Shown: positions 1,943 to 13,086, counted from the first letter of the stretch. The stretch is 38,859 nt of DNA from an uncultured Bacilli bacterium (GCA_934085635.1 CAKOHL010000001.1:1-38859), one strand, 5' to 3'. The notes: generated by a model from the sequence alone, not told the origin. Made by a program: numbers and translations.

Positions 1943-4086
1943 TATCTCTCCACCCTACTTATAAATTTCATATTGGATAAATCATTCATAAACTTATCTA
2001 AAAACTCTTTATTCTTTACTTTACATACAAGTTCATATATCTCTTCATTCTTACTTCTACCTTTATTATTAATAGATGAAACAATAACATCACTCTTAGT
2101 AGCTAAAGAAATTATATCTACTAAATTATCATTAGAAGAATCTATATACACTTTTATACTAACAGTATACCTTTCTACTCCCATATCATTCCAAGCAACA
2201 TCAATTATTCTTTCAGTATCATTTTCTATCTCTTTACAATCTTTTCTATGTACACTTATACCATTACCTTTAGTAATATATCCTACTATTTCATCTCCAT
2301 AAACTGGTTTACAACAATTAGCTAAATTAGTAAGAATATCATTATATCCCGCTATTAGAATATTACCACTATTATTATTAGTATGTACATTCTTATTTTC
2401 AAGAAGTTTTTCAATAGTATCATCTTTCTTAGGATAAACTATTTCAATAAGTTTATTTACTACAGCTTGAGGAGTATATTTTAAAGAAACTATACCTAAA
2501 CAAATATCATTCATATCATCTGCTTTCAACTCAGTACATAATTTCTCTATATTAGCATTAGTAAGTAATTCATTTACACTATACTTTCTCTTCTTAATCT
2601 CTTCTTTAATTATCTCATTACCAGTAAGTATACTCTTTTCTTTCTCTTTCTTATAGAAATAACTCTTAATTCTAGACTTAGCACTTTCAGTCTTTACAAA
2701 CTTAAGCCAAGTTTTAGAAGGACTCTTCCCAGCTTGTGTTCTAAGTTCAACTATATCTCCATCTTGAAGTAAATAATCTAAACTAACTTGTTTACCATTT
2801 ACTAAAGTACCTATTAAAGTATTACCAACCTCTGAATGTATCTTATAAGCAAAATCGACTGGAGTAGACTTATCAGGAAGTTCTATAATATCTCCTTTAG
2901 GAGTAAATATATATATAAATTCTTTACTAATATTATTTTGAAAATTCTTAAAGAAATCAGTATTTCCTTCTATATCATTTACTTCAATCAAAGTCCTAAA
3001 CTGAGCAAGTTTAGTTTCAAGTTCATTAGTTTTACTTCCATCAATATGTTCCTTATAAGACCAGTGAGAAGCAACCCCGTGCTCTGCTATTTCATTCATC
3101 TCATAAGTACGTATCTGTACTTCATATACTTTACCATCAACTCCAAATACTGTAGTATGTAAACTTTGATACATATTATTTTTAGGATTAGCTATAAAAT
3201 CTTTAAATCTCTTTGGTATAGGTCTAAACTTAGAATGAATAAGTCCAACTACCAAATAACACTCTTCAGTTTTTTCAAGAAGTACTCTAAGTCCAAGTAA
3301 ATCATATATTTGATCCCACTTTCTACCAGAAGCAAGTTTATTATAAATACCCCTAACAGACTTAACTCTATAAGTAAGTTCATACTTAATCTCGTGTTCA
3401 TTAAGTATTTCCATTATTTCATCTCTCATCTTATATAAAGAATTCTCAAGTTCCTCTTTACTAGCATTAATCTTCTCTAATATTTCTTTATACTCTACTG
3501 GATGAGTAAGTCTTAAACAAATATCCTCAAGTTCACTCTTCATACTTTTAATACCAAGCCTATGCGCTATAGGTATAAAAATATTTTCTGTCTCAGAAAC
3601 AACCTCTTTAATATGTTCTTCATCTAAAGGATCTATAGTTCTTAAATTATCAAGTCTATCAGCAAGTTTAATAAATAATGTTATAGGATTCTCAGAAAGA
3701 CCTACTACTATTCTTCTATACTTATCTTTATCATTATCTTTATTAAAAGTCCTCTTAAGTCTACTTATTTTAGTAATAGAAGAAAGAATACTAAACACTT
3801 CTTCTCCAAACTCTTTTTTAACTTCTTCCTCAGTCATCTTTTCTAAGGTAAGCGCTTCGTGAATTAAACCGCACCCAATTGTAAGAGCATCCATCTTAAG
3901 TTCAGCAAGAATTATACTAACTCTCAAAGGATGACAAATATACTCTTCCCCTGATAATCTATTCATTCCATCATATATAATAATAGCTTTCTCATAATAT
4001 TTATTTACTATATTTATTCTATCTTCATCCATATATGACTTCAAAATAGTAATTAATTTTTCATAATCTTTTTCCTTAGTTTCCAT
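1942..4086 (-). CDS. relA: Bifunctional (p)ppGpp synthetase/hydrolase (RelA/SpoT family)
   Basis: 714 aa. HD hydrolase region (YICHPLRVSIILAEL, LIHEAL), synthetase region (YRVKSVRGIYNKL, DLLGLRVL, YQSLHTTV), TGS region (IYIFTPKGDIIELPDKSTPVDFAYKIHSEVGN) and an ACT-like C-terminus. Confidence 0.95.
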   Translation of the reverse strand: METKEKDYEKLITILKSYMDEDRINIVNKYYEKAIIIYDGMNRLSGEEYICHPLRVSIILAELKMDALTIGCGLIHEALTLEKMTEEEVKKEFGEEVFSILSSITKISRLKRTFNKDNDKDKYRRIVVGLSENPITLFIKLADRLDNLRTIDPLDEEHIKEVVSETENIFIPIAHRLGIKSMKSELEDICLRLTHPVEYKEILEKINASKEELENSLYKMRDEIMEILNEHEIKYELTYRVKSVRGIYNKLASGRKWDQIYDLLGLRVLLEKTEECYLVVGLIHSKFRPIPKRFKDFIANPKNNMYQSLHTTVFGVDGKVYEVQIRTYEMNEIAEHGVASHWSYKEHIDGSKTNELETKLAQFRTLIEVNDIEGNTDFFKNFQNNISKEFIYIFTPKGDIIELPDKSTPVDFAYKIHSEVGNTLIGTLVNGKQVSLDYLLQDGDIVELRTQAGKSPSKTWLKFVKTESAKSRIKSYFYKKEKEKSILTGNEIIKEEIKKRKYSVNELLTNANIEKLCTELKADDMNDICLGIVSLKYTPQAVVNKLIEIVYPKKDDTIEKLLENKNVHTNNNSGNILIAGYNDILTNLANCCKPVYGDEIVGYITKGNGISVHRKDCKEIENDTERIIDVAWNDMGVERYTVSIKVYIDSSNDNLVDIISLATKSDVIVSSINNKGRSKNEEIYELVCKVKNKEFLDKFMNDLSNMKFISRVER

Positions 4087-6284
4087 TATGCATTTATTCC
4101 TTTTATTAACCTTTCTTGTGGCTCATCATCTAAAACATCTTTCTTAATTTTAGGATGCTTAAACTTATGTACTTCAAGTCTATATAAAATATAAGGTGCT
4201 ATATATAAACTACTAAATGTACCAAAAGTAAGTCCAAATAATATTGTTAAATTAAATTCTCTAACTCCATTAGTATTCATAAGAAGTAAAACTATAACTG
4301 CTATTAAAGTTGTTAAACTAGCAAGTAAATTTCTCTTTAAAGTTAAACTAGTACTAGTATTAATAACATCTCTAATCTTATCTTCATTAATATTTTTAAT
4401 ACTCTTCATCTTATCTCTTATCATATCAAACACTATTATAGTATTATTTATTGAATAACCAATTATAGTAAGAATACCTGCTATAAATATAAAGTTAATC
4501 TCTATCTTAAATATTGCAAACAATGATATAGTTACTAAAACATCACTAAGAATCGCGCAAATACCACTAATACTATAATTACCAGCAAACCTAAATGCTA
4601 TATAAATAAGAATTGCAAGTCCAGCAAATAATAGTGACTTAATTGCATTAACAGTTAAATCTCTTTTAACTAAATTACTTATACTTGATATATCAGCATC
4701 TAACTTTAATTCTTCAAAATTCTTCTTAACTATTTTAATTTCATCACTACCTAGTGATTCACTTATTTTAATATAATACTCTTTATCAGATACCTTAGAT
4801 TCTTCTGTAATAGTATATTTATCTAATTTCTCATAAATCTTATCTTTATCTATAGTCTCACCACTTTTAACAGTAATTGCACTTCCTCCTTTAAAGTCTA
4901 CTCCAAAATTAAGCCCAGAAGTAAATGTTACTATAATTCCGACTATTATTATAATAGATACAATAGCTATATTATATTTAGAATATTTTAAATTATCTCT
5001 AACCTTAGCCTTCTTACATTTACCTAAAAGTATCTTTTCATTATTATCAAACTTATCTGTACTTATAAAATTAGAAAGTAAAAATCTATTAATTAATACC
5101 ATACTAATGCCAGTAACTATAATAGTTAAAATAAGCATAGTAGCAAAACCTTTAACACTAGATTCTCCAAGTATAAATAATACTAAAGCAGCTATAAAAG
5201 TAGTCAAATTGGCATCAATTAAGGACACTAAACTACGTTTATTACCATCTAAATAAGCATTCTTTAAGCTCTTACCATTACTTACTTCTTCTTTAATTTT
5301 CTCAATTGTAATAATACTTGAGTCAACAGCCATACCAATACCTAAGATAAGGGCTGCAATACCAGTTAATGTAAGTACTCCATCTATCAAAGTATAAAAC
5401 ATAAATACAAGTCCAACATATAAAACTAAACTTACAAAGCTTACTACTCCTGATAATCTATAATTAACAATCATAATAACAGAAATAATAAGTAAAGTAA
5501 TAAGTCCAGCTTTAGCTATTAAATTTAGAGTATTACTTCCATATGAAGCATCAACGCTTTTAGTACTTATCTCAGTTAACTTAGCTCTTAAACTACCAGA
5601 ATTAATTAAATCAACCAAAGTATTTGCTTCTTCTTCAGTAAAATTACCTTGAATAACTACATTACTTGAAAACCCTTCTTTAACAGTAGCAGCACTTATA
5701 CATTTAGTACTACTTTCCCCACATTTAGCTGTTTTATAAGAGTCTCCCTCTTCAAAATCAAGCCATATTGTAATAAGTTTATCATCACTTTCACTTATAC
5801 TTTTAGTAACTCTATAAAAAGTATCTTTATCTTTAATAGAAAGAGCAACAACTGGTTTACCAGTTTGCCTATCATAATCCAAACTAGCCCCAGGAGATGC
5901 AAGTACACTTGATGACATAACTTCCTCATCAGAAGTATTTCTAAAAGTTAAAACTGCTGGAGTAGTAAGTCTTTCTCTAGCTTCATCTTCATTTTGTACA
6001 CCAGGAAGTTTAACCCTAATTTTGTCTCCCTCAATAATAATTTCAGGTTCACTTACACCAAGTGTATCTATCCTATTTCTTATAGATTTATAAGTAGCTT
6101 TAATATCCGAATCCTTAAGTTCACTTCCATCTAAACTCTCAACTAAATAAAGAACTTCAAATCCACCCTTTAAATCTAATCCATAATTAATTTTCTTAAC
6201 AAATGTAAGTATCAAAAGTACTCCAATAATAAAAGCACTCAAAAGATACAAAATACTCTTAGTCAATGTTGTCTTTTTTTTCAT
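4086..6284 (-). CDS. secDF: Protein translocase subunit SecDF (fused)
   Basis: 732 aa multi-TM protein with the duplicated signatures GLDLKGGFEVLY (SecD) and GVDFKGGSAITV (SecF). Size and fusion match Bacillus SecDF. Confidence 0.9.
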   Translation of the reverse strand: MKKKTTLTKSILYLLSAFIIGVLLILTFVKKINYGLDLKGGFEVLYLVESLDGSELKDSDIKATYKSIRNRIDTLGVSEPEIIIEGDKIRVKLPGVQNEDEARERLTTPAVLTFRNTSDEEVMSSSVLASPGASLDYDRQTGKPVVALSIKDKDTFYRVTKSISESDDKLITIWLDFEEGDSYKTAKCGESSTKCISAATVKEGFSSNVVIQGNFTEEEANTLVDLINSGSLRAKLTEISTKSVDASYGSNTLNLIAKAGLITLLIISVIMIVNYRLSGVVSFVSLVLYVGLVFMFYTLIDGVLTLTGIAALILGIGMAVDSSIITIEKIKEEVSNGKSLKNAYLDGNKRSLVSLIDANLTTFIAALVLFILGESSVKGFATMLILTIIVTGISMVLINRFLLSNFISTDKFDNNEKILLGKCKKAKVRDNLKYSKYNIAIVSIIIIVGIIVTFTSGLNFGVDFKGGSAITVKSGETIDKDKIYEKLDKYTITEESKVSDKEYYIKISESLGSDEIKIVKKNFEELKLDADISSISNLVKRDLTVNAIKSLLFAGLAILIYIAFRFAGNYSISGICAILSDVLVTISLFAIFKIEINFIFIAGILTIIGYSINNTIIVFDMIRDKMKSIKNINEDKIRDVINTSTSLTLKRNLLASLTTLIAVIVLLLMNTNGVREFNLTILFGLTFGTFSSLYIAPYILYRLEVHKFKHPKIKKDVLDDEPQERLIKGINA

Positions 6285-6842: not shown

Positions 6843-6982
6843 CCTATATATTGCCATATTTTCCTCCAGCTTCAGTCAATAATCTACCTATTTCAAAATA
6901 TGTAATACCCTTATACCTTTCCTTTGAATAATCTTTTACTTTTGTATATGTTTCATTATCTATTAATTTATTCTTTTGTCAT
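6843..6982 (-). pseudogene. Frameshifted 5' fragment of a second DUF1016/YhcG nuclease gene
   Basis: About 130 nt here aligns with the 5' end of the intact gene (roughly 6846-6975 vs 7746-7875; tttcaaaatatgtaata..cctttgaataatcttttacttttgtatat is nearly identical). ATG 6982-6980 reads M-T-K-E-stop. The shifted frame gives KNKLIDNETYTKVKDYSKERYKGITYFEIGRLLTEAGGKYGNI-stop, matching residues 9-50 of the full protein. Confidence 0.8.
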
Positions 6983-7002
6983 ATAATCACATCCTATAGA
7001 TA

Positions 7003-7896
7003 CTATATCACAATAACATATTCTCTTATAGCAATTCTTTCATCTGAACAATATTCTATAACAAATTTATTTTCCCGTTTACAAATTAATATTCCCATTG
7101 TATTATTATTAAATTGTTCTTTTACATTCTTGTCTATATAATTCATATATTTTTGAACTTGTGATATGTATTCTACTTTAAACACAGTTACCTTTAATTC
7201 AACAACTACATAACAGTTATATTTTATATTAAATAACAACAAATCAACATAATGATTTCTATCACCTATCTTAAGCTTGTATTCATTACCTATAAAACTA
7301 AATGAATTACCAAGTTCTTTCATAAATGATTCAATATCTTCTAAAATTAAATTATGTAATGCTTTTTCAGTGGCTATTTCTATATTGTTCTTATTCCTAA
7401 TTAATATAGGATTAGGTACTAAATCTTTTATTTCAATCTCATTATTAAGTATTAGCTGATTTCTAGTTTCACTTGGTAATCTTTCATATTCTTTATTTTT
7501 AATTTTTTCTCTTAATTCTCTTTTTGATAAATTCCTTTTAAAAGCAATGTTTACATAATATAACAATTCATTTTCATCTTTAATAGATAATAATTCAGAA
7601 TAATGACTCCAAGATAATTTGGTCGCCAGTGGCGACCATTTTTCATCTTTGAACATTCTATAATATTGTCTAATACGTCTTAATGTTCTTTCATTATATT
7701 TTTTTCCAAACTCAACAACCAATCTATTTGAATAATTTTTTAAGATATTATCTCCATATTTACTACCTGCTTCATCTAATAGTTTTCCAATTTCAAAATA
7801 TGTAATAACTTTGTATCTTTCCTTTGAATAATCTTTTACTTTTGTATATATTTCATTATCAATCAATTTGTTTTTTATCTCGCTATAATAATTCAT
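7003..7896 (-). CDS. DUF1016 / YhcG-family PDDEXK nuclease
   Basis: 297 aa. N-terminal YhcG signature (YFEIGKLL..., RRIRQYYRMF, LSWSHYSELLSIKD, NLSKRELREKI). C-terminal PD-(D/E)xK-like core (HYVDLLLFNIKYNCYVVVELKV). RBS GGAAGGAAG 13 nt after the stop of the comEC pseudo-copy. Confidence 0.85.
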   Translation of the reverse strand: MNYYSEIKNKLIDNEIYTKVKDYSKERYKVITYFEIGKLLDEAGSKYGDNILKNYSNRLVVEFGKKYNERTLRRIRQYYRMFKDEKWSPLATKLSWSHYSELLSIKDENELLYYVNIAFKRNLSKRELREKIKNKEYERLPSETRNQLILNNEIEIKDLVPNPILIRNKNNIEIATEKALHNLILEDIESFMKELGNSFSFIGNEYKLKIGDRNHYVDLLLFNIKYNCYVVVELKVTVFKVEYISQVQKYMNYIDKNVKEQFNNNTMGILICKRENKFVIEYCSDERIAIREYVIVI

Positions 7897-7909: not shown

Positions 7910-8479
7910 CTACGGACTGCAAGTTACTTTTTTTAACTTATTATTTTTAATCTTAAACATAACACTCCCATCTTCATCTGTTCTATATATTTTTGTGTTT
8001 ACTAAATTATTTAATACTGACTCTTTAGGATGACCATATCTGTTATTCTTACCAACACTAATAATCGCGTATTTAGGCTCTGTTTTATTTATAAAATATT
8101 TACTACTACTTGTTTTAGATCCATGATGTCCAACTTTTAATACATCAATATCTGATAGATTATACTTTTCTAAAATATCTTTTTCTTTATCTACCCCAGC
8201 GTCTCCCATAAACATAAATTTATATCCATTAAGTTCAGTATAAATAACATTACTATTATCGTTTTCGTTATCATATTCTTTTGTTTGTAAAAAATATAAT
8301 TTGTTATCATCTATATTTAACTCTTTAATACATGAATAATATTTTGTATTATTTTTATCTAATACCTTAATTAATTCCTTTTCTAAATCATTGAACTCGC
8401 CACAATTAAAAATAACTTTTTCTACTTTAAAGTTATTAACCAAATTTATTGCTTCGCCCATATGATCATAATCCCCGTG
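7910..8479 (-). pseudogene. Displaced 3' fragment of comEC (metallo-beta-lactamase domain only)
   Basis: The 183-aa ORF aligns along its whole length with the C-terminal ~185 aa of the intact ComEC (FMGDAG, LKVGHHGS, ISVGKNNRYGHPKESVLNNLVNTKIYRTDEDGS). Homology stops at ccccgtg (8473-8479), and an in-frame TGA lies 3 codons upstream of the HGDYDH codons. The ~525 N-terminal residues are absent. Confidence 0.85.
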
Positions 8480-8514
8480 TGGTGATTTTCAATTAGTAAG
8501 TCGAATTTAAGTAA

Positions 8515-8539
8515 AGAAAAAAGATTACATAATGTAACC
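8515..8539 (-). terminator. Rho-independent terminator after the 571-aa gene
   Basis: Minus strand, immediately after the TAA stop: GGTTACATTATGTAATC hairpin followed by TTTTTTC. Confidence 0.55.
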
Positions 8540-10255
8540 TTAATCTAATGTCTGGTAAGCTTTTTTAATATCAGCATTTGCCATTTCTATTTGTCTTTTT
8601 TTATCTAAAAACATATTTATTATCTCTTCAGGTTTTTCCACCGTATATCCTTGTTTTCTAGCATAATCAACCCAATATGGAGATTTCAATACTTTTTCAA
8701 ATTCACTATCTAAAGTTTTTGTTACTATATCTATACAATATATTGCAGTTTTTGGAGCATCAACTGATATTTCATCAATATGGTTCATAATTCTACCTAA
8801 ATACGAAATCAATTTATCACTATTGAAATGTTTTTCAAGTAATTCAGGTGCAACATCTCTATAACCATTATTTATTGTATAAATTGATTCTAAAATACTT
8901 TTTAATATTTTAGAATCATCATATCTACTTTCAAATAATTCTAAATTTTTTTCGATTTTTTCTATATTATTTAATAAACACTTTTGACAATCTACTACTA
9001 CAATAGGAATATTAAAATCTTTTGCTGCTTTTAAACTTTCAAGCCAAATTGGATCACTACTAAAATCTTCCTTTGTTTTTAAGTATACTATATAATCTGG
9101 ATTAATCCTTTCTAACTTACCATTTATTACTCTTCTTCTAGAACGATAAACTTCATTATTCGTAAATCTTGTGTTATTTATTAAACTATCAGGTGTTCTA
9201 AATTCAACGTCAGCAATTAATTTTTTTTGATGAAATGGATTTGTAACATTCAAATCTTTATATATTCCACCAGTACCTAGATCATTTGCGCCTAATAATG
9301 ATAAATTGTTTCTACCAAAATTATTAAAGCCAAACAAACAGTGCTTTACATGTGTTTTTATGCTACTGCTGTTAATAATTGAATTACACATATAATCAGT
9401 AGCAATACTTGGACAATTCCATGCGTCTTTAAAATTTTCAGGTGTTTCGTATTCTGTTGCCATACCATACGAATAAATACACATATTAAAATCTAATCCA
9501 GCATCATATATATTAATACCATCAACGTTACCAATTTGTTTTTCATTTGTTGGTGAATAAAACTTTTCATCATATATTTTTGAGTAAAAATTTCTAAGAA
9601 CAGAATCTATATTAATTAGAAAACTTAAATTCTCATATGCAATTCTATCGCTACCTTTACCTTCAATAATATTTTTAATATCAAGTAAAAAATCTTTTTC
9701 CTCTGATTCAGGTAAATTTTCTATATCCTTACCATATCTCATATATAAATTATAAGCTTTATCATATGACATTCCATATTTGTTTAATAATAATATATTT
9801 GGATCATTTGTTTCGTTATTTTTACTATTCTTGTCATCTCTAATTATTTGTAAATTATTTAGATCATCAACAGAATTTATACCGAAATAATTAGCTCCAT
9901 TACTAATTACAAATAATAATTTTTCTATTTGAGACTCGCTCAATTCATTTTTACTAACATCATCTATTAAATTTGAAAAATGTTTATTTTTTAAAAAATG
10001 ATAATAATTTGCACATAATGAAATCCAATCTTGATTTACACTTTCAGCATAACTAATAATCTTTGATATATTTTTAATGTTATGTTCAGATAGGTTAATT
10101 ATATTTTCTTGTGCTTCTTTATTTAAAGCAAATGTTTCTAAAACATATAAAGGTAAATATTTTATGGTAATTTCATTTATAAAACCACTTATTAGTGTTT
10201 TTTCTATTTCTTTATTGCTGGTTTTTAAATAATTTATTATACTATTAACATCCAT
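8540..10255 (-). CDS. Hypothetical 571-aa cytoplasmic protein, no family recognised
   Basis: Long uninterrupted ORF with ATG start and RBS-like TATAGGATGTGAT 3 nt upstream. No signal peptide or TM segment. The N- and C-terminal thirds look helical. The Cys/His/Gly-rich centre (FNMCIYSYG, HVKHCLFGFNNFGRNNLSLLGANDLGTGG, NEVYRSRRR, PIVVVDCQKC) matches no motif I know. Confidence 0.6.
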   Translation of the reverse strand: MDVNSIINYLKTSNKEIEKTLISGFINEITIKYLPLYVLETFALNKEAQENIINLSEHNIKNISKIISYAESVNQDWISLCANYYHFLKNKHFSNLIDDVSKNELSESQIEKLLFVISNGANYFGINSVDDLNNLQIIRDDKNSKNNETNDPNILLLNKYGMSYDKAYNLYMRYGKDIENLPESEEKDFLLDIKNIIEGKGSDRIAYENLSFLINIDSVLRNFYSKIYDEKFYSPTNEKQIGNVDGINIYDAGLDFNMCIYSYGMATEYETPENFKDAWNCPSIATDYMCNSIINSSSIKTHVKHCLFGFNNFGRNNLSLLGANDLGTGGIYKDLNVTNPFHQKKLIADVEFRTPDSLINNTRFTNNEVYRSRRRVINGKLERINPDYIVYLKTKEDFSSDPIWLESLKAAKDFNIPIVVVDCQKCLLNNIEKIEKNLELFESRYDDSKILKSILESIYTINNGYRDVAPELLEKHFNSDKLISYLGRIMNHIDEISVDAPKTAIYCIDIVTKTLDSEFEKVLKSPYWVDYARKQGYTVEKPEEIINMFLDKKRQIEMANADIKKAYQTLD

Positions 10256-10280
10256 TCTATCACATCCTATAATTATTATA

Positions 10281-12413
10281 TCATATTAATTTATAATTAG
10301 GTAAACAAGTTCCTATTTTTAATTCATTATTTTTAATTTTAAACATAATGCTACCATCTTCATCAGTTCTATATATTTTTGTGTTTACTAAATTATTTAA
10401 TACTGATTCTTTAGGATGACCATATCTGTTATTCTTTCCAACACTAATAATAGAATATTTAGGATTGATACTTTTAATAAATTCTTCACTACTACTTGTA
10501 TTCGAACCGTGATGACCTACTTTTAAAACATCTATATTTTTCAAATTATATTTTTCTAATATATCTTTTTCTTTATTAATACCTGCATCACCCATAAATA
10601 AAAATTTATAATTATTATAATTTAAATAAATTACACTAGAGTTATCATTTTCATTATCAAATAAATCTGTATTCAAAAAAATTAATTTAGCTTCATCGAA
10701 ATGAGCCTCACTTATGCATTTATAATAATTAATCTTATTCGCTTCTAGTACTTTAATTAGTTCCTTTTCAAGATTATTATAGTCCCCACAGTTAAAAACA
10801 ACATTGCTAACGCGAAAATTATTAACTAAATTTATTGCTTCGCCCATATGATCATAATCCCCGTGAGTAATAATTAAATAATCAAGTTTACTAATTCCGA
10901 GTTTTCTCATAAAAGGTATAGTACTTGATCTAACAATTGAACTAGTTTTACCTTTCGCCCATTCTTCTTTTTTATAAGTAGTCTTGCCTCCAGTATCAAT
11001 AAGTATATTCGTTTTGGTATAACGACTTGTAAGCAAAATAGAATCTCCCTGCCCGACATCTAAATAATAAATATCAGTTGAAGTCTTAAAAAGAGGCTTA
11101 ATCTTAACTAAGACAAGAAGAAGCATTAAAACTAAAAGCAATACTTTCTTTCTAACTTTAACAAAAATAGCAAATGTCATTACAAAGATAACTACAAACC
11201 AGATGCTAACTTTAGGGAAATAAATAATTATCTTAAATTTATTAAAAAATGTACTAAGTATTTCTAGTATATCGGTAAAAAAATACAAAACTTTAGAAGC
11301 AAATGGAAAAACAAAAGTAAACAAAGTAAATGGAAAAATAATAAAACTTACAAATGGGACGAACACTAAATTAAGAACTGTACCTAATAAATTAATGTAT
11401 CCAAAATAATAAATGCTTACACTCATAGTCCCAATAAAACTAACTAGACTTACTTTAAATAATCCTTTCAAATAACCTTTGTCACTAATTAAGTCTGATG
11501 AAATCATTAGAAAAAAAGCAGCAAGAAACGATAAAATAAAGCTAATCTTATAAATTATAAATGGATTAATTATAACTAAAGTACTGAAAACTAAATAAAG
11601 TACATTAACTTGTTTAACATTAAAATAAAACACTTTATTAATTCCAAGTAGGAAGAAAAGTAAAGAGGCTCTTAAAATAGATGGAGAAAAATTAGTAATA
11701 AATGAAAACATCATTAAAAAAATAAACACAAATATGTAACTCATAAACTCGCTTATCTTAAACCTCTTTAGTACAAATAAAATAAGTGCACTAAAAATAC
11801 TAACGTGAAGCCCTGACAAAGCAAATAAATGACTAATTCCATTTTCTCTATAAGAAGTAATTACTTCTTCATCTATATAAGTTGTCTTACCTAATATAAA
11901 AGCATAAATATAACTCTTATCTTGGAATCTCTCTGCTCTTTTGTATAGATAATTCTTGAGATTATAAAAAATATTAATATTCTTATTATTAAGTCTAATA
12001 CTATCTACTTTTAATAAATAATATATTTTTTCATTATATAAATATTTCTTATAATTAAACATATATGGTAAAGTATTATTCTTAGCCTCTTCTAAAGTTC
12101 CGCTCACTTCTACTTTAGAACCAATAAGTAAATTTGATTCAAAGTATTTTTTCTCATCTAAAGATTTAATATAGTATGTAGCTTTTAACTTTTCTTTACA
12201 TTTCAAAATTAAATCAAGTTTGTCTCCACTTATTTTATACTCTTTTAGAATACATTTAAAACTAGTATCATCTTGATCATATTTACTCTCATACTTTTTA
12301 ATTTTAGTCACACATAAACTAAACAAAAGCGCTAAAATAACTAGAAACCTATAAAGATAATCACACAGTAATATTTTCCTTAATACTATCATAAAGTTTA
12401 TCCCCAATACCAC
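10281..12413 (-). CDS. comEC: DNA internalization competence protein ComEC/Rec2
   Basis: 710 aa. Multi-TM competence domain (GISHLFALSGLHVSI) plus a C-terminal MBL domain (YLDVGQGDSILL, ITHGDYDHMGEA, FMGDAG, KVGHHGS). Follows comEA. The true start is probably ATG at 12392 (track start 12413 is GTG inside comEA). Confidence 0.9.
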   Translation of the reverse strand: MVLGINFMIVLRKILLCDYLYRFLVILALLFSLCVTKIKKYESKYDQDDTSFKCILKEYKISGDKLDLILKCKEKLKATYYIKSLDEKKYFESNLLIGSKVEVSGTLEEAKNNTLPYMFNYKKYLYNEKIYYLLKVDSIRLNNKNINIFYNLKNYLYKRAERFQDKSYIYAFILGKTTYIDEEVITSYRENGISHLFALSGLHVSIFSALILFVLKRFKISEFMSYIFVFIFLMMFSFITNFSPSILRASLLFFLLGINKVFYFNVKQVNVLYLVFSTLVIINPFIIYKISFILSFLAAFFLMISSDLISDKGYLKGLFKVSLVSFIGTMSVSIYYFGYINLLGTVLNLVFVPFVSFIIFPFTLFTFVFPFASKVLYFFTDILEILSTFFNKFKIIIYFPKVSIWFVVIFVMTFAIFVKVRKKVLLLVLMLLLVLVKIKPLFKTSTDIYYLDVGQGDSILLTSRYTKTNILIDTGGKTTYKKEEWAKGKTSSIVRSSTIPFMRKLGISKLDYLIITHGDYDHMGEAINLVNNFRVSNVVFNCGDYNNLEKELIKVLEANKINYYKCISEAHFDEAKLIFLNTDLFDNENDNSSVIYLNYNNYKFLFMGDAGINKEKDILEKYNLKNIDVLKVGHHGSNTSSSEEFIKSINPKYSIISVGKNNRYGHPKESVLNNLVNTKIYRTDEDGSIMFKIKNNELKIGTCLPNYKLI

Positions 12414-13086
12414 TTACTTTTTTTATGTCTTCAATAGAATTAAAATTACCATTAGCCGTCCTATAATCAATTATCTTCTCAGCCTTACTCTCCCCAATAT
12501 TAGAAAGTTTCATAAGTTCCTCTTTAGTAGCAGTATTAATATTTACTTTTTGGTTATTTTCTAAACTATTAACAGTATTATCTTCTTCACTTTTCACGTT
12601 ATCGTTAGTAATGAGTTCACTTTCACTAATAGAAGCCGAATTTTTAGAATCATTATTTATTTTGACTTCAGTAATATTATTTCCTGAACTTACTTTTTTA
12701 ATTTCACTAGTACTATTTACAATAATCACGTTTTCATCTTTTAAAATTCTACTTAAATTAATATATTTAGTATAAGCTTTCTTAGTTAAACCACCTGATG
12801 CATTAATTGCATCAATAACCCTAGAATTTTCTTTAAGCTTATAAACTCCCGGTTTCTTAACTTCTCCCTTAATATCCACCAAAATATATTTTTCTTCACT
12901 TACATTAGAACTTTCTTCTACTTTTTCTAAATTATCACTTATAAGGTTAACATCATCGTCTTCTAAAAGAACTTTATCTTTCTTAAAATAACTATTCCAA
13001 ACAAGAAAACAAATGGTGCCTAAAAGAAGAACTATAATTAAAAGTTCAAGCTTTCTCTCACTAACATAATTCTTTATTTTTTCCAT
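12361..13086 (-). CDS. comEA: Competence protein ComEA (DNA receptor)
   Basis: 241 aa. N-terminal TM anchor, SLBB-like segment (VDIKGEVKKPGVYKLKENSRVIDAINASGG) and C-terminal tandem helix-hairpin-helix (VNINTATKEELMKLSNIGESKAEKIIDYR...IKKVSGIGDKLYDSI). Confidence 0.9.
   Translation of the reverse strand: MEKIKNYVSERKLELLIIVLLLGTICFLVWNSYFKKDKVLLEDDDVNLISDNLEKVEESSNVSEEKYILVDIKGEVKKPGVYKLKENSRVIDAINASGGLTKKAYTKYINLSRILKDENVIIVNSTSEIKKVSSGNNITEVKINNDSKNSASISESELITNDNVKSEEDNTVNSLENNQKVNINTATKEELMKLSNIGESKAEKIIDYRTANGNFNSIEDIKKVSGIGDKLYDSIKENITV

Follow-up and report, generated by a model that had tools for sequence, protein, structure and literature searches.

Large serine integrases, which pair attP with attB and attL with attR strictly, direct Listeria phages A118/phi10403S into comK and B. 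subtilis SPbeta into spsM. Accretion-mobilisation is known from the CIMEs of ICESt1/ICESt3, from tandem islands at tRNA genes and from tycheposon arrays, where tyrosine integrases act on long segments of identity. The S. pyogenes prophages Phi1207.3 and Phi10394.4 encode serine recombinases and are inserted at a GA dinucleotide in comEC (PMC4260502). In the T6SS effector-immunity arrays of V. cholerae, incoming modules displace older 3' ends downstream and leave orphan 3' fragments (PMC5361080). Restriction-modification insertion with long target duplication (Nobusato 2000; Furuta 2010) has been described mostly in competent species (PMC2853133).

We analysed a comEC locus in a 38,859-nt stretch of DNA from an uncultured Bacilli bacterium, here called the window (Table 1), together with related loci. 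As with the comEC, comK and spsM prophages, temperate phages with a large serine recombinase gene adjoining attP use a short crossover within coding sequence, and the gene is split in the lysogen; comEC is also the target of Phi1207.3. In contrast to those prophages, the target here is the codons of the HxHxDH motif, and the locus retains integrase-less scars, replacement 3' ends and cargo, which have not been described there. Because of the replacement 3' ends, comEC is intact without excision of a phage. Like CIMEs, tRNA islands and tycheposons, the locus has tandem cargo between att-type sites, with no recombinase of its own and an autonomous relative that supplies the integrase. It differs from them in its large serine integrase with an apparent 2-bp crossover and in the regenerated 190-codon gene end, which lies in each cassette and not in attP. 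As in integrons, genes of diverse function, mostly single and in one orientation, are stacked at a fixed site and bounded by recombination sites; unlike in integrons, the recombinase here is phage-borne and of the serine family, and most cassettes hold the 3' end of the target gene. [quoted passage not shown] Restriction-modification insertions likewise place nuclease-type genes between direct repeats of the target, hundreds of base pairs long, with no mobility gene, but here the repeat boundary bears a phage attachment arm, which provides a mechanism for this case.

Table 1. Features of the comEC locus in the window.
Feature	Coordinates	Strand	Basis or remark
Intact comEC, 710 aa	10281..12413	-	Pfam: DUF4131, Competence and Lactamase_B domains
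attB-type core in comEC, CACGGGGATTATGATCAT, HGDYDH codons	10848..10865	-	attP/attL/attR/attB comparison
Last ~54 comEC codons, part of the p571 unit	10281..10443	-	Begins at the S-type junction position
Cargo gene p571, 571 aa	8540..10255	-	Sole ORF in the insert
Terminator-like hairpin GGTTACATTATGTAATC plus T-run, end of the p571 cassette	8516..8539	-	Read from the sequence
Phage attP P arm, AAATTCGACTTACTAATTGAAAATCACCA	8480..8508	-	26/29 to attP of L092/L144
attR-type junction core, B' side, CACGGGGATTATGATCAT	8462..8479	-	Homology edge and att comparison
Displaced comEC 3' end, intact 183-aa ORF	7910..8461	-	Starts at the Met after HGDYDH
DUF1016/YhcG PD-(D/E)XK nuclease gene	7003..7896	-	Pfam; PADLOC PDC-S02
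Remnant like the comEC tail and intergenic region upstream of p571	6986..7021	-	81% to 10259-10294
Displaced 5' fragment of a second DUF1016 gene	6849..6976	-	83% nt to 7749-7876

Every feature named in the initial annotation was found where it had been placed. The two comEC copies form direct repeats at a distance of 2386 nt, and their ungapped nt identity over 7910-8479 is 77%; at 2000 random offsets, identity averaged 31% and never exceeded 39%. The lower ORF matches ComEC residues 523-705 without a gap (136/183 identical, 74%; E=2e-94). We confirmed the identical block (8442-8479 = 10828-10865; 38/38), the three mismatches in the 98-nt block (7968-8065 versus 10354-10451), and the in-frame TGA three codons before the motif in the lower copy (TGA AAA TCA CCA CAC GGG). 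Identity falls abruptly from 100% at 8450-8479 to 43% at 8480-8509 and 20% at 8510-8539, and thus comEC homology breaks off sharply, at the first codon of HGDYDH. The 29 nt past this edge, which had been overlooked, are conserved and not derived from comEC. The DUF1016 5' fragment had also been missed; it appears to be the leftover of an older cassette.

We recovered attP, attL and attR from independent assemblies. The attP of L092 and L144 (the same phage, in free form in L144) reads ATTCGACTTACT-TTTTGACAAT-CACCACAT-GGAGGT-ATGTGGT-T-AGTAAGTCGAAT and is an imperfect inverted repeat with outer arms ATTCGACTTACT / AGTAAGTCGAAT and inner arms ACCACAT / ATGTGGT. At 4955-5027 of L092, it adjoins the gene for a 473-aa large serine recombinase (ORF 3540-4961; Resolvase, Recombinase and Zn_ribbon_recom domains; PHROG 95 integrase) that is at most 36% identical to those of deposited phages. 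The phage also encodes a repressor, tail genes, a holin and an M23/LysM lysin. At attL (L093, L136 and L137), a truncated comEC ends ...CATGGAG, followed at once by GTATGTGGTTAGTAAGTCGAAT, with an integrase alongside; comEC is cut to 480 to 513 aa at this junction (L093, L136-L141). An identical integrase protein was found in four host backgrounds (L138-L141), abutting a 480- to 507-aa comEC with comEA before it; ftsW adjoins comEA in L139-L141 and not in L138. At attR (L145, L146 and L147), the P arm and CATGG come after the phage end and are joined to (A/C)GAT..., the 183-aa ORF and holA. True lysogens carry comEC split into an N-terminal ORF of ~500 aa and a C-terminal ORF of 183 aa. These phages form a family of temperate siphoviruses from uncultured gut/rumen Bacilli. 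Judged from the junctions, their large serine integrase evidently uses the H-G-D codons of HGDYDH, the ComEC metallo-beta-lactamase motif, as attB. The crossover would be 2 bp, the CA of the His-517 codon (10864-10865) and of CAYGG. The window cores read CACGG and the known phage sites CATGG; we put this difference down to the host His codon, which would place the crossover at the CA.

The P arm occurs once in the window (chance expectation, 0) and directly abuts the core at 8479, at the same joint position as in the lysogen attR. Its AA variant is also present in L150. The recovery of attP, attL and attR, together with the P-arm match, identifies the lower copy as an attR-type scar: this 3' copy and the 29 nt upstream of it are a junction between a phage P arm and a bacterial B' arm. 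The phage itself is absent from the window, and exactly at the core the N-terminal part of comEC continues in frame into a replacement 3' end, after which come p571, the terminator and the P arm. The initial annotation had seen here the footprint of an element that targets comEC and remakes its 3' end, which the phage att junctions support. It had also remarked on the absence of an integrase or transposase. We too found no recombinase within the insert, where p571 alone is encoded (ORF and Pfam scan), but the attR explains this: a phage carrying a large serine integrase that acts in trans accounts for the recombinase missing at the locus. With no integrase inside the insert, we rejected a self-integrating island that remakes its target's 3' end (tRNA, trmE or dusA type). 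Nothing specific speaks for natural transformation, which had been offered as the delivery route; the sharp edge is the mark of a site-specific crossover, apparently of 2 bp, and not the border of a recombination tract. The ~10 nt before the P arm in arrays (CTTTRYTTAA) are unlike the sequence before the P arm in the recovered phage, so the donor phage lineage of the scars is not among the recovered phages. We consider it probable that the reading as a whole is correct, namely, that the locus holds a phage attR scar and a replacement 3' end with cargo and that cassettes are picked up and deposited through att sites.

The p571 protein had no match in Pfam, PADLOC or PHROG, and its AF2 model (pLDDT, 92.8) had none in PDB or BFVD. 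Horizontal acquisition of the replacement 3' end and cargo, as had been proposed, was upheld: p571 is ~99% nt identical to a copy in another species (L043) whose ComEC N-terminus is 34% identical. Outside p571, identity to L043 drops to 78-93% within the flanking repeats; in the comEC tail it climbs from about 10443 and is 90-93% nt over the final ~120 nt (10281-10386). The upper 3' copy is a mosaic. The blocks from which mosaicism had been suggested are real, but their cause is homologous exchange among repeats, and the 98-nt block begins where a second ("S-type") junction class begins in other genomes. The lower copy and DUF1016 are 86-88% identical in amino acids to those of dozens of species, and the lower copy reaches 86% with the comEC of other species over 183 residues and 88% over residues 1-133. 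To call the lower copy the displaced resident end was too simple, since with DUF1016 it belongs to a pan-species mobile module.

Across species, the last ~190 codons of ComEC are ~85% identical and the N-terminal 510 residues ~35%, with a step-up in conservation at H517 to which purifying selection contributes. Pairwise identities of the N- and C-terminal parts hardly correlate (r~0.1, versus 0.52-0.65 between halves of the N-terminus), and pairs with 97% identical C-termini have N-termini that are 29-42% identical. Between species, tracts of >90% nt identity extend over ~1.5 kb, with the core at one end and the DUF1016 stop at the other. Codon identity, taken where the residues are identical, is 0.70 in the 3' module and 0.58 in the N-terminal part; the substantial synonymous divergence of the 3' module indicates that most exchanges are old. 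These comparisons indicate that residues 1-516 are lineage-specific, that residues 517-710 are a replacement 3' module and that the history of the last ~190 codons is decoupled from that of the remainder of the gene.

The set of 80 loci comprised the best 80 of 301 matches to the lower copy and so carries ascertainment bias; T1/T2 scars were present in about half of the related-species loci with a full-length comEC (33/72). The P-arm motif occurred 78 times in 90 loci, always on the comEC strand and each time followed by the core. Downstream of comEC, we found arrays of tandem units (comEC 3' end, cargo and P arm), mostly of one gene each, whose boundaries are the P-B' and P-P' sites of T1/T2 phages. 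Species share cassette units even where identity between their ComEC N-termini is only ~35%. A Pfam scan of 20 in-array cargo representatives, which covered the larger cargo ORFs, revealed no recombinase. DUF1016 is the commonest cargo (42 loci) and starts 15 nt past the comEC stop in most species; the comparison with relatives that had been proposed showed that many species have this "empty" layout, in which DUF1016 comes straight after comEC, and that others hold different cargo. Other cargo includes p571, Bro-N and many more, and cassettes without DUF1016 keep identical junctions; hairpins specific to each cargo precede the P-arm motif at other loci too. At the core, the P arm of L020, L026, L028 and L036 adjoins intact ORFs with only 48-56% identity to the mobile form, a divergence too great for homologous recombination. 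Arrays also contain complete P-core-P' sites, including hybrid sites in which several distinct P arms are joined to one P' arm. "Beta" cassettes consist of a P' arm, one gene and a P arm, which would make one complete site in a circle. We found no phage genome with a cassette beside attP among the phage contigs examined.

Homologous recombination alone, with the comEC 3' end as portable homology and RecA swapping repeat-flanked cassettes after transformation or transduction, would explain why the ~99% nt p571 tract ends within the flanking repeats and why some inter-species tracts begin within the repeat, at residues 41, 48 and 136. The halves of the 3' segment also correlate weakly (r 0.16-0.23), pointing to mosaicism, and homologous recombination is the explanation given in the literature for Neisseria minimal mobile elements and T6SS effector-immunity arrays (for T6SS, PMC5361080). 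We nevertheless judge it an unlikely sole cause. It leaves unexplained the phage P arm before each internal copy, the exact core joints to such diverged 3' ends, and the P-core-P' hybrid sites. Homologous recombination is better regarded as a further layer of change, acting on arrays of site-specific origin.

It is very improbable that the DUF1016 PD-(D/E)XK nuclease acts as a free-standing homing endonuclease, cutting comEC alleles that lack it and spreading with a co-converted 3' tract, even though it is the commonest cargo, lies so close to the comEC stop, travels with the comEC 3' end in the highly similar ~1.5-kb tracts and belongs to a family of predicted nucleases linked to defence loci. 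The same junctions are shared by p571, Bro-N and many other cassettes without DUF1016, so the expected linkage to the nuclease does not hold; moreover, a phage att site forms the junction, target duplications are not a product of homing, and a literature search on the DUF1016 family gave no biochemical evidence. Had the comEC 3' end been duplicated in tandem long ago within the lineage, with later divergence and an insertion of p571, direct repeats like those observed would result, and an assembly artefact could mimic them. Both explanations are hardly credible, being refuted by the related loci and by the attP and att-junction comparisons: the lower copy is nearer to the comEC of other species (up to 86-88% aa) than to its neighbour in the window (74%), the same architecture and 29-nt motif recur in many independent assemblies from different studies, and this motif is a phage attP arm. 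The earlier argument that divergence speaks against a recent tandem duplication held up.

In the att-based reading that we prefer, the phage integrase and its directionality factor would pick up and deposit cassettes by recombining attL with a non-cognate attR, for which the distal scar, an inner phage-borne attR and the attR on a circular cassette are candidates. Such a reaction would restore comEC and leave the older 3' end as a scar. Among the routes considered, attP x attR is non-canonical for large serine integrases. The recent arrival of the p571 allele would have been a homologous replacement with end-points within the flanking comEC-derived repeats.

We rejected an integron proper, as there is no IntI, attI or attC, no integrase lies beside comEA/comEC in the window or the loci, and the cassette ends are phage P arms. 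More tentatively, and as a possibility that we hold somewhat less probable than its opposite, uncultured gut/rumen Bacilli may host an integron-like cassette system in which large serine integrases of phages act in trans, cassettes are captured at the HGD codons of comEC and form arrays, phages spread them via non-cognate att sites, and homologous recombination shuffles them. The cassettes of such a system would be single genes that bring with them either a phage P arm and a replacement comEC 3' end or a whole attP. If this is true, the C-terminal ~190 residues of ComEC would be swapped and homogenised, as a side effect of the system, across species that are ~35% identical in the remainder of the protein.

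We found that residues 523-705 of ComEC align without gaps to the 183-aa ORF (136/183 identical; E=2e-94). At the DNA level, the two copies of the comEC 3' end, spaced 2386 nt apart, are 77% identical (random-offset mean, 31%) and share a 38-nt block without differences at their upstream edge and a second block of 98 nt with 3 mismatches. Copy-to-copy identity is 100% at 8450-8479, 43% at 8480-8509, and 20% at 8510-8539, with the repeat edge falling on the first codon of HGDYDH, a metal-binding motif. The lower copy, which holds the 183-aa ORF, has an in-frame TGA three codons upstream of HGDYDH. The alignment, blocks, edge, and TGA had all been described correctly in the initial annotation.

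Features of the comEC locus in the window and arm motifs preceding comEC fragments
Feature	Position	Strand	Sequence or context
comEA	12361-13086	minus	
comEC, 710 aa	10281-12413	minus	
p571, 571-aa ORF	8540-10255	minus	
183-aa ORF, comEC fragment	7910-8461	minus	
DUF1016/YhcG nuclease gene	7003-7896	minus	
Post-transcriptional-regulator gene and secDF	same locus	minus	
T1 motif			AAATTCGACTTACTTTTTGACAATCACCA; upstream of residue 1-3 fragments
T2 motif			AAATTCGTATGCATAAACGTATGTCACCA; upstream of residue 1-3 fragments
S motif			TATGTACTAACTAC-TYAATACCA; upstream of residue 133/134 fragments

Other assemblies, too, have homologues of the p571 protein (73-94% identity) downstream of comEC. In all five loci examined (L001-L004 and L043), the homologue is followed by a comEC fragment with the same start position, and in such loci more comEC 3' fragments alternate with other small genes. 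Scanning one genome per species, we found relatives of the 183-aa ORF in 301 genomes and used the best 80 as our locus set, a choice that carries ascertainment bias. These 80 are MAGs of uncultured gut and rumen Bacilli and include 'Mycoplasma sp. CAG:877', 'Clostridium sp. CAG:1000', and 'Clostridium sp. CAG:433', and we take them to belong to the order RF39 in GTDB. The commonest layout in the sampled loci is comEC, 15 nt, and DUF1016. At least one additional downstream comEC 3' fragment or scar (an attR-type junction without phage) was present in 41 of the 72 loci with a full-length comEC, and some loci hold three tandem units. We found no description of such a system in the literature on comEC with DUF1016, RF39 comEC, or comEC integration sites.

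We sorted 91 internal comEC fragments by their first residue, counted along the 183-aa ORF: it is 1-3 in 56 of them and 133/134 in 16. Directly upstream of the fragments starting at residues 1-3, we found one of two conserved motifs, T1 and T2, that do not derive from comEC. T1, T2, and S occurred 78 times on the comEC strand of 90 loci; the opposite strand of these loci gave a single match, with 1 mismatch, to the short S motif. In the 90 loci, the core, CAYGGNGAY..., comes after every T1 and T2, and a GTTGG junction comes after S; this pairing is kept even where the remainder of the comEC fragment is deleted. The window holds a T1 variant once, at 8480-8508, where none is expected by chance. 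The P-arm motif is also joined at the core to diverged, 'native' 3' ends, which are too different for homologous recombination to have made those joints.

The T1 motif was also considered as a promoter (TTGAAA-16-TATGAT, 8492-8465). Our scan lists the site, and promoter-like sites were no commoner than in shuffles; T1 is explained as an att arm. In the T1 P arm, TTGACA (TTGAAA in the window) lies 16 nt upstream of a TATGAT made by GAT-TAT-GAT codons, and the 183-aa ORF starts at the Met after HGDYDH; this arrangement, seen with T1 in many loci, could conceivably provide an outward promoter for the displaced fragment or the next cargo gene. We also observed a composite junction of a T1 or T2 P arm, the core, TAGMCATTWC, the S motif, and the final 51 comEC codons (locus L003, 3400-3640 and 6100-6345; locus L054, 2211-2330). 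It seems to propagate as a unit, recurring in three places.

Scanning viral contigs for T1 plus core, we found the temperate phage L092, and a second contig, L091, terminates at the motif. The L092 attP continues as an imperfect inverted repeat, ATTCGACTTACT TTTTGACAAT CACCACAT GGAGGT ATGTGGT T AGTAAGTCGAAT, and directly adjoins genes for a large serine recombinase of 473 aa and for an S24 repressor; L092 further carries siphovirus tail genes, a holin, and an M23/LysM lysin. A free phage form (attP) is found in L144. In the attL contigs L093, L136, and L137, comEC is cut after ...CATGGAG and followed by GTATGTGGTTAGTAAGTCGAAT and the integrase gene. In the attR contigs L145-L147, P arm-CATGG|(A/C)GAT... 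adjoins the phage end, and a 183-aa ORF and holA come next. A second phage family (L138-L141) has one identical integrase protein in four different host backgrounds, and its P' arm is an inverted match of the outer part of T2. A guessed P' arm for the T2 type had given spurious matches only, and the actual one came from these lysogens. The S-type arm had no match in the scan of viral contigs; a phage of this type would target GTTGGnAAGAA at ComEC residue ~658.

After the P arm, scars read CATGG or CACGG, and host B arms vary as far as the base that precedes CA. The most likely crossover is therefore this CA, in the codon for His-517. That 8480-8508, 8462-8479, and the 183-aa ORF form an attR-type junction is well supported by these comparisons. 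The initial annotation had noted that the insert holds no integrase or transposase; this was confirmed and follows from the junction being an attR-type phage site, and the agent to be added would be a phage large serine integrase acting in trans. The precedent for comEC-targeting serine-integrase prophages is S. pyogenes Phi1207.3/Phi10394.4, inserted in comEC via serine recombinases (PMC4260502). The present integrase is at most 36% identical to those of deposited phages. A single-sequence query for the comEC 3' module in IMG/VR phage contigs found nothing, and a profile query found only ComEC-like MBL genes of other taxa with at most 54% identity. All eight of those inspected were uninterrupted, and we therefore do not claim targeting of other phyla.

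The comEC-targeting phage (L091 1384-3748; L144 8890-11182) has, near the attR end, what look like defence genes of the moron type: one for an EcoRI-like adenine methyltransferase and one for a GmrSD/HNH (DUF262) nuclease. A GmrSD homologue with 95% identity (P0209) belonged to a related phage at other loci and was uninformative for comEC. In the true lysogens L145 (10263-10382) and L146 (10128-10247), the 183-aa fragment after attR is followed by a short comEC fragment (residues 19-58), and thus an older scar was present in the host beforehand.

In a lysogen, the prophage is expected upstream of attR, with comEC split. In the window, the comEC N-terminal part is fused in frame at the core to a different 3' end, and p571, a terminator, and the P arm come after it. 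Across loci, this unit of comEC 3' end, cargo, and P arm (a cassette) carries many different genes: DUF1016, Bro-N, an M9-like peptidase, WDGH, FGase-like, Fic, VanZ, and C39-like proteins, weak radical-SAM and DUF488-like matches, and unknowns. We found no recombinase among 20 in-array cargo representatives searched against Pfam. About 17 species share the 3' half of the Bro-N gene, a stretch of ~380 nt, at >90% nt identity; at locus L060 (10649-11036) this half is the sole Bro-N remnant, and ~17 other loci share the segment. Of a second DUF1016 gene, the window retains a displaced 5' fragment of 128 nt (6849-6976; 83% identical to 7749-7876), preceded by a 36-nt remnant (6986-7021) like the comEC tail and the region upstream of p571; together they look like an older cassette, mostly deleted. 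A perfect GC-rich 19-nt palindrome, TGGTCGCCAGTGGCGACCA (7620-7638), lies within the AT-rich DUF1016 ORF; it was flagged as terminator-like on both strands and codes for part of a conserved WSPLAT stretch.

A metagenome scan for complete attP-like sites found arrays with P-core-P' sites between single genes and no free phages. The order in L150, one such array, is comEC, DUF1016, a 147-aa gene, P-core-P', an esterase-like gene, P-core-P', an HTH gene, and a P arm joined to a comEC fragment. In these arrays, one and the same P' arm is joined to several different P arms. Hybrids of this kind are the expected products of site-specific exchange between att sites that are not cognate: when attL recombines with attR on another molecule, the result is a restored attB and an attP-type site. 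We favor a model with canonical reactions only, in which a prophage excising with a distal attR scar would take up the cassette in between and, after integration in a new host, excision with the inner attR would deposit it. This would restore comEC, and the 3' end native to the host would persist as a scar. Another route might be integration at attL of a circular cassette with an attR-type site. Because we found no cassette-carrying phage genome among the viral contigs scanned, we infer the pick-up and deposit step, and the account of how cassettes are built and moved is a reasoned one.

Other explanations fared less well. If DUF1016 were a homing nuclease or recombinase that drives the rearrangement, it should accompany the junctions; the same junctions occur in cassettes without DUF1016, and for either role the literature offers predictions only. 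Template and variable repeats like those of DGRs were considered; reverse transcriptase is absent, and the copies do not differ specifically at adenines. For Xer/dif mimicry, dif-like arms are absent. Intron-like signals (TACTAAC in the S motif) were considered from the sequence and dropped.

The window and L043 p571 genes are ~99% nt identical, whereas the ComEC N-termini are 34% identical. In the flanks, identity drops to 90-93% over the ~120 nt at the end of comEC and to 78-92% across the P arm, core, and lower copy. Since identity falls inside the flanking repeats, the recent p571 event appears to be a homologous replacement with end-points in the comEC-derived repeats; a single-copy recipient is excluded because it would have given two identical copies in the window. 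On its left, the ~99% tract ends at the S-type junction position, where the 98-nt block also starts. Residues 523-655 of the upper copy are at most 73% identical to any sampled copy, and the lower copy is 86-88% identical to many. These patterns suggest that homologous exchange is a second layer over the site-specific junctions. The p571 protein had no match in Pfam, PADLOC, or PHROG. Its AlphaFold (AF2) model, of very high confidence (pLDDT 92.8; pTM 0.90), had no significant match in PDB or BFVD and is possibly an undescribed fold. A distant homologue directly follows comEC without scars in locus L007, and others (37-46% identical) lie elsewhere, after a GH25 muramidase gene (L008-L010); p571 may be a one-time chromosomal neighbor of comEC that was later captured.

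We compared mean pairwise identity per column in 69 full-length ComECs. It is 0.2-0.5 to residue ~510 and ~0.85-0.9 from H517, a jump midway through the Pfam Lactamase_B domain. When the N-terminal part is halved, the pairwise identities of its halves are correlated (r 0.52-0.65), whereas those of the N-terminal and C-terminal parts are not (r ~0.1), and pairs with 97% identical C-termini have N-termini just 29-42% identical. Otherwise unrelated species share ~1.5-kb tracts, >90% nt identical, that span the HGDYDH codons through the DUF1016 stop. Where residues are identical, codon identity is 0.70 in the 3' module and 0.58 in the N-terminal part; because synonymous divergence is still considerable, most exchanges would be old, with selection also contributing. 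The conservation step, the uncorrelated identities, and the shared tracts point to a comEC 3' end with a history of its own. In several loci, the array ends in an intact, far more diverged 3' copy (48-56% identical to the common form), and those of the closest hosts, L020 and L026, are mutual best matches. These terminal copies look like the original native comEC ends.

The initial annotation was right in kind in proposing a targeted insertion that regenerates the comEC 3' end with horizontally acquired cargo, as the scar and the ~99% p571 match to L043 indicate; nothing singles out natural transformation, its suggested delivery route. The parts are of known kinds, namely serine-integrase prophages in competence genes and integrase-less elements accreting at att sites. 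We found no literature description of their combination, in which cassettes with replacement gene ends occur in about half of the related species sampled and part of ComEC is homogenized. An unexplained duplication of a gene end, with no integrase, thereby becomes a defined system that is testable in vitro: it has sequences for attB, attP, attL, and attR, an integrase candidate, and P arms of two or three types. The 183-aa ORFs annotated downstream of comEC in these MAGs are att scars, not a new gene family. A horizontally traveling module can form part of a housekeeping gene, by which comEC gene-tree/species-tree analyses are misled. If the cassette reading holds, large serine integrases go beyond switching genes on and off: they would build and spread cargo arrays while repairing their target gene, which bears on gene flow in an abundant uncultured gut lineage and on design rules for serine-integrase landing pads.
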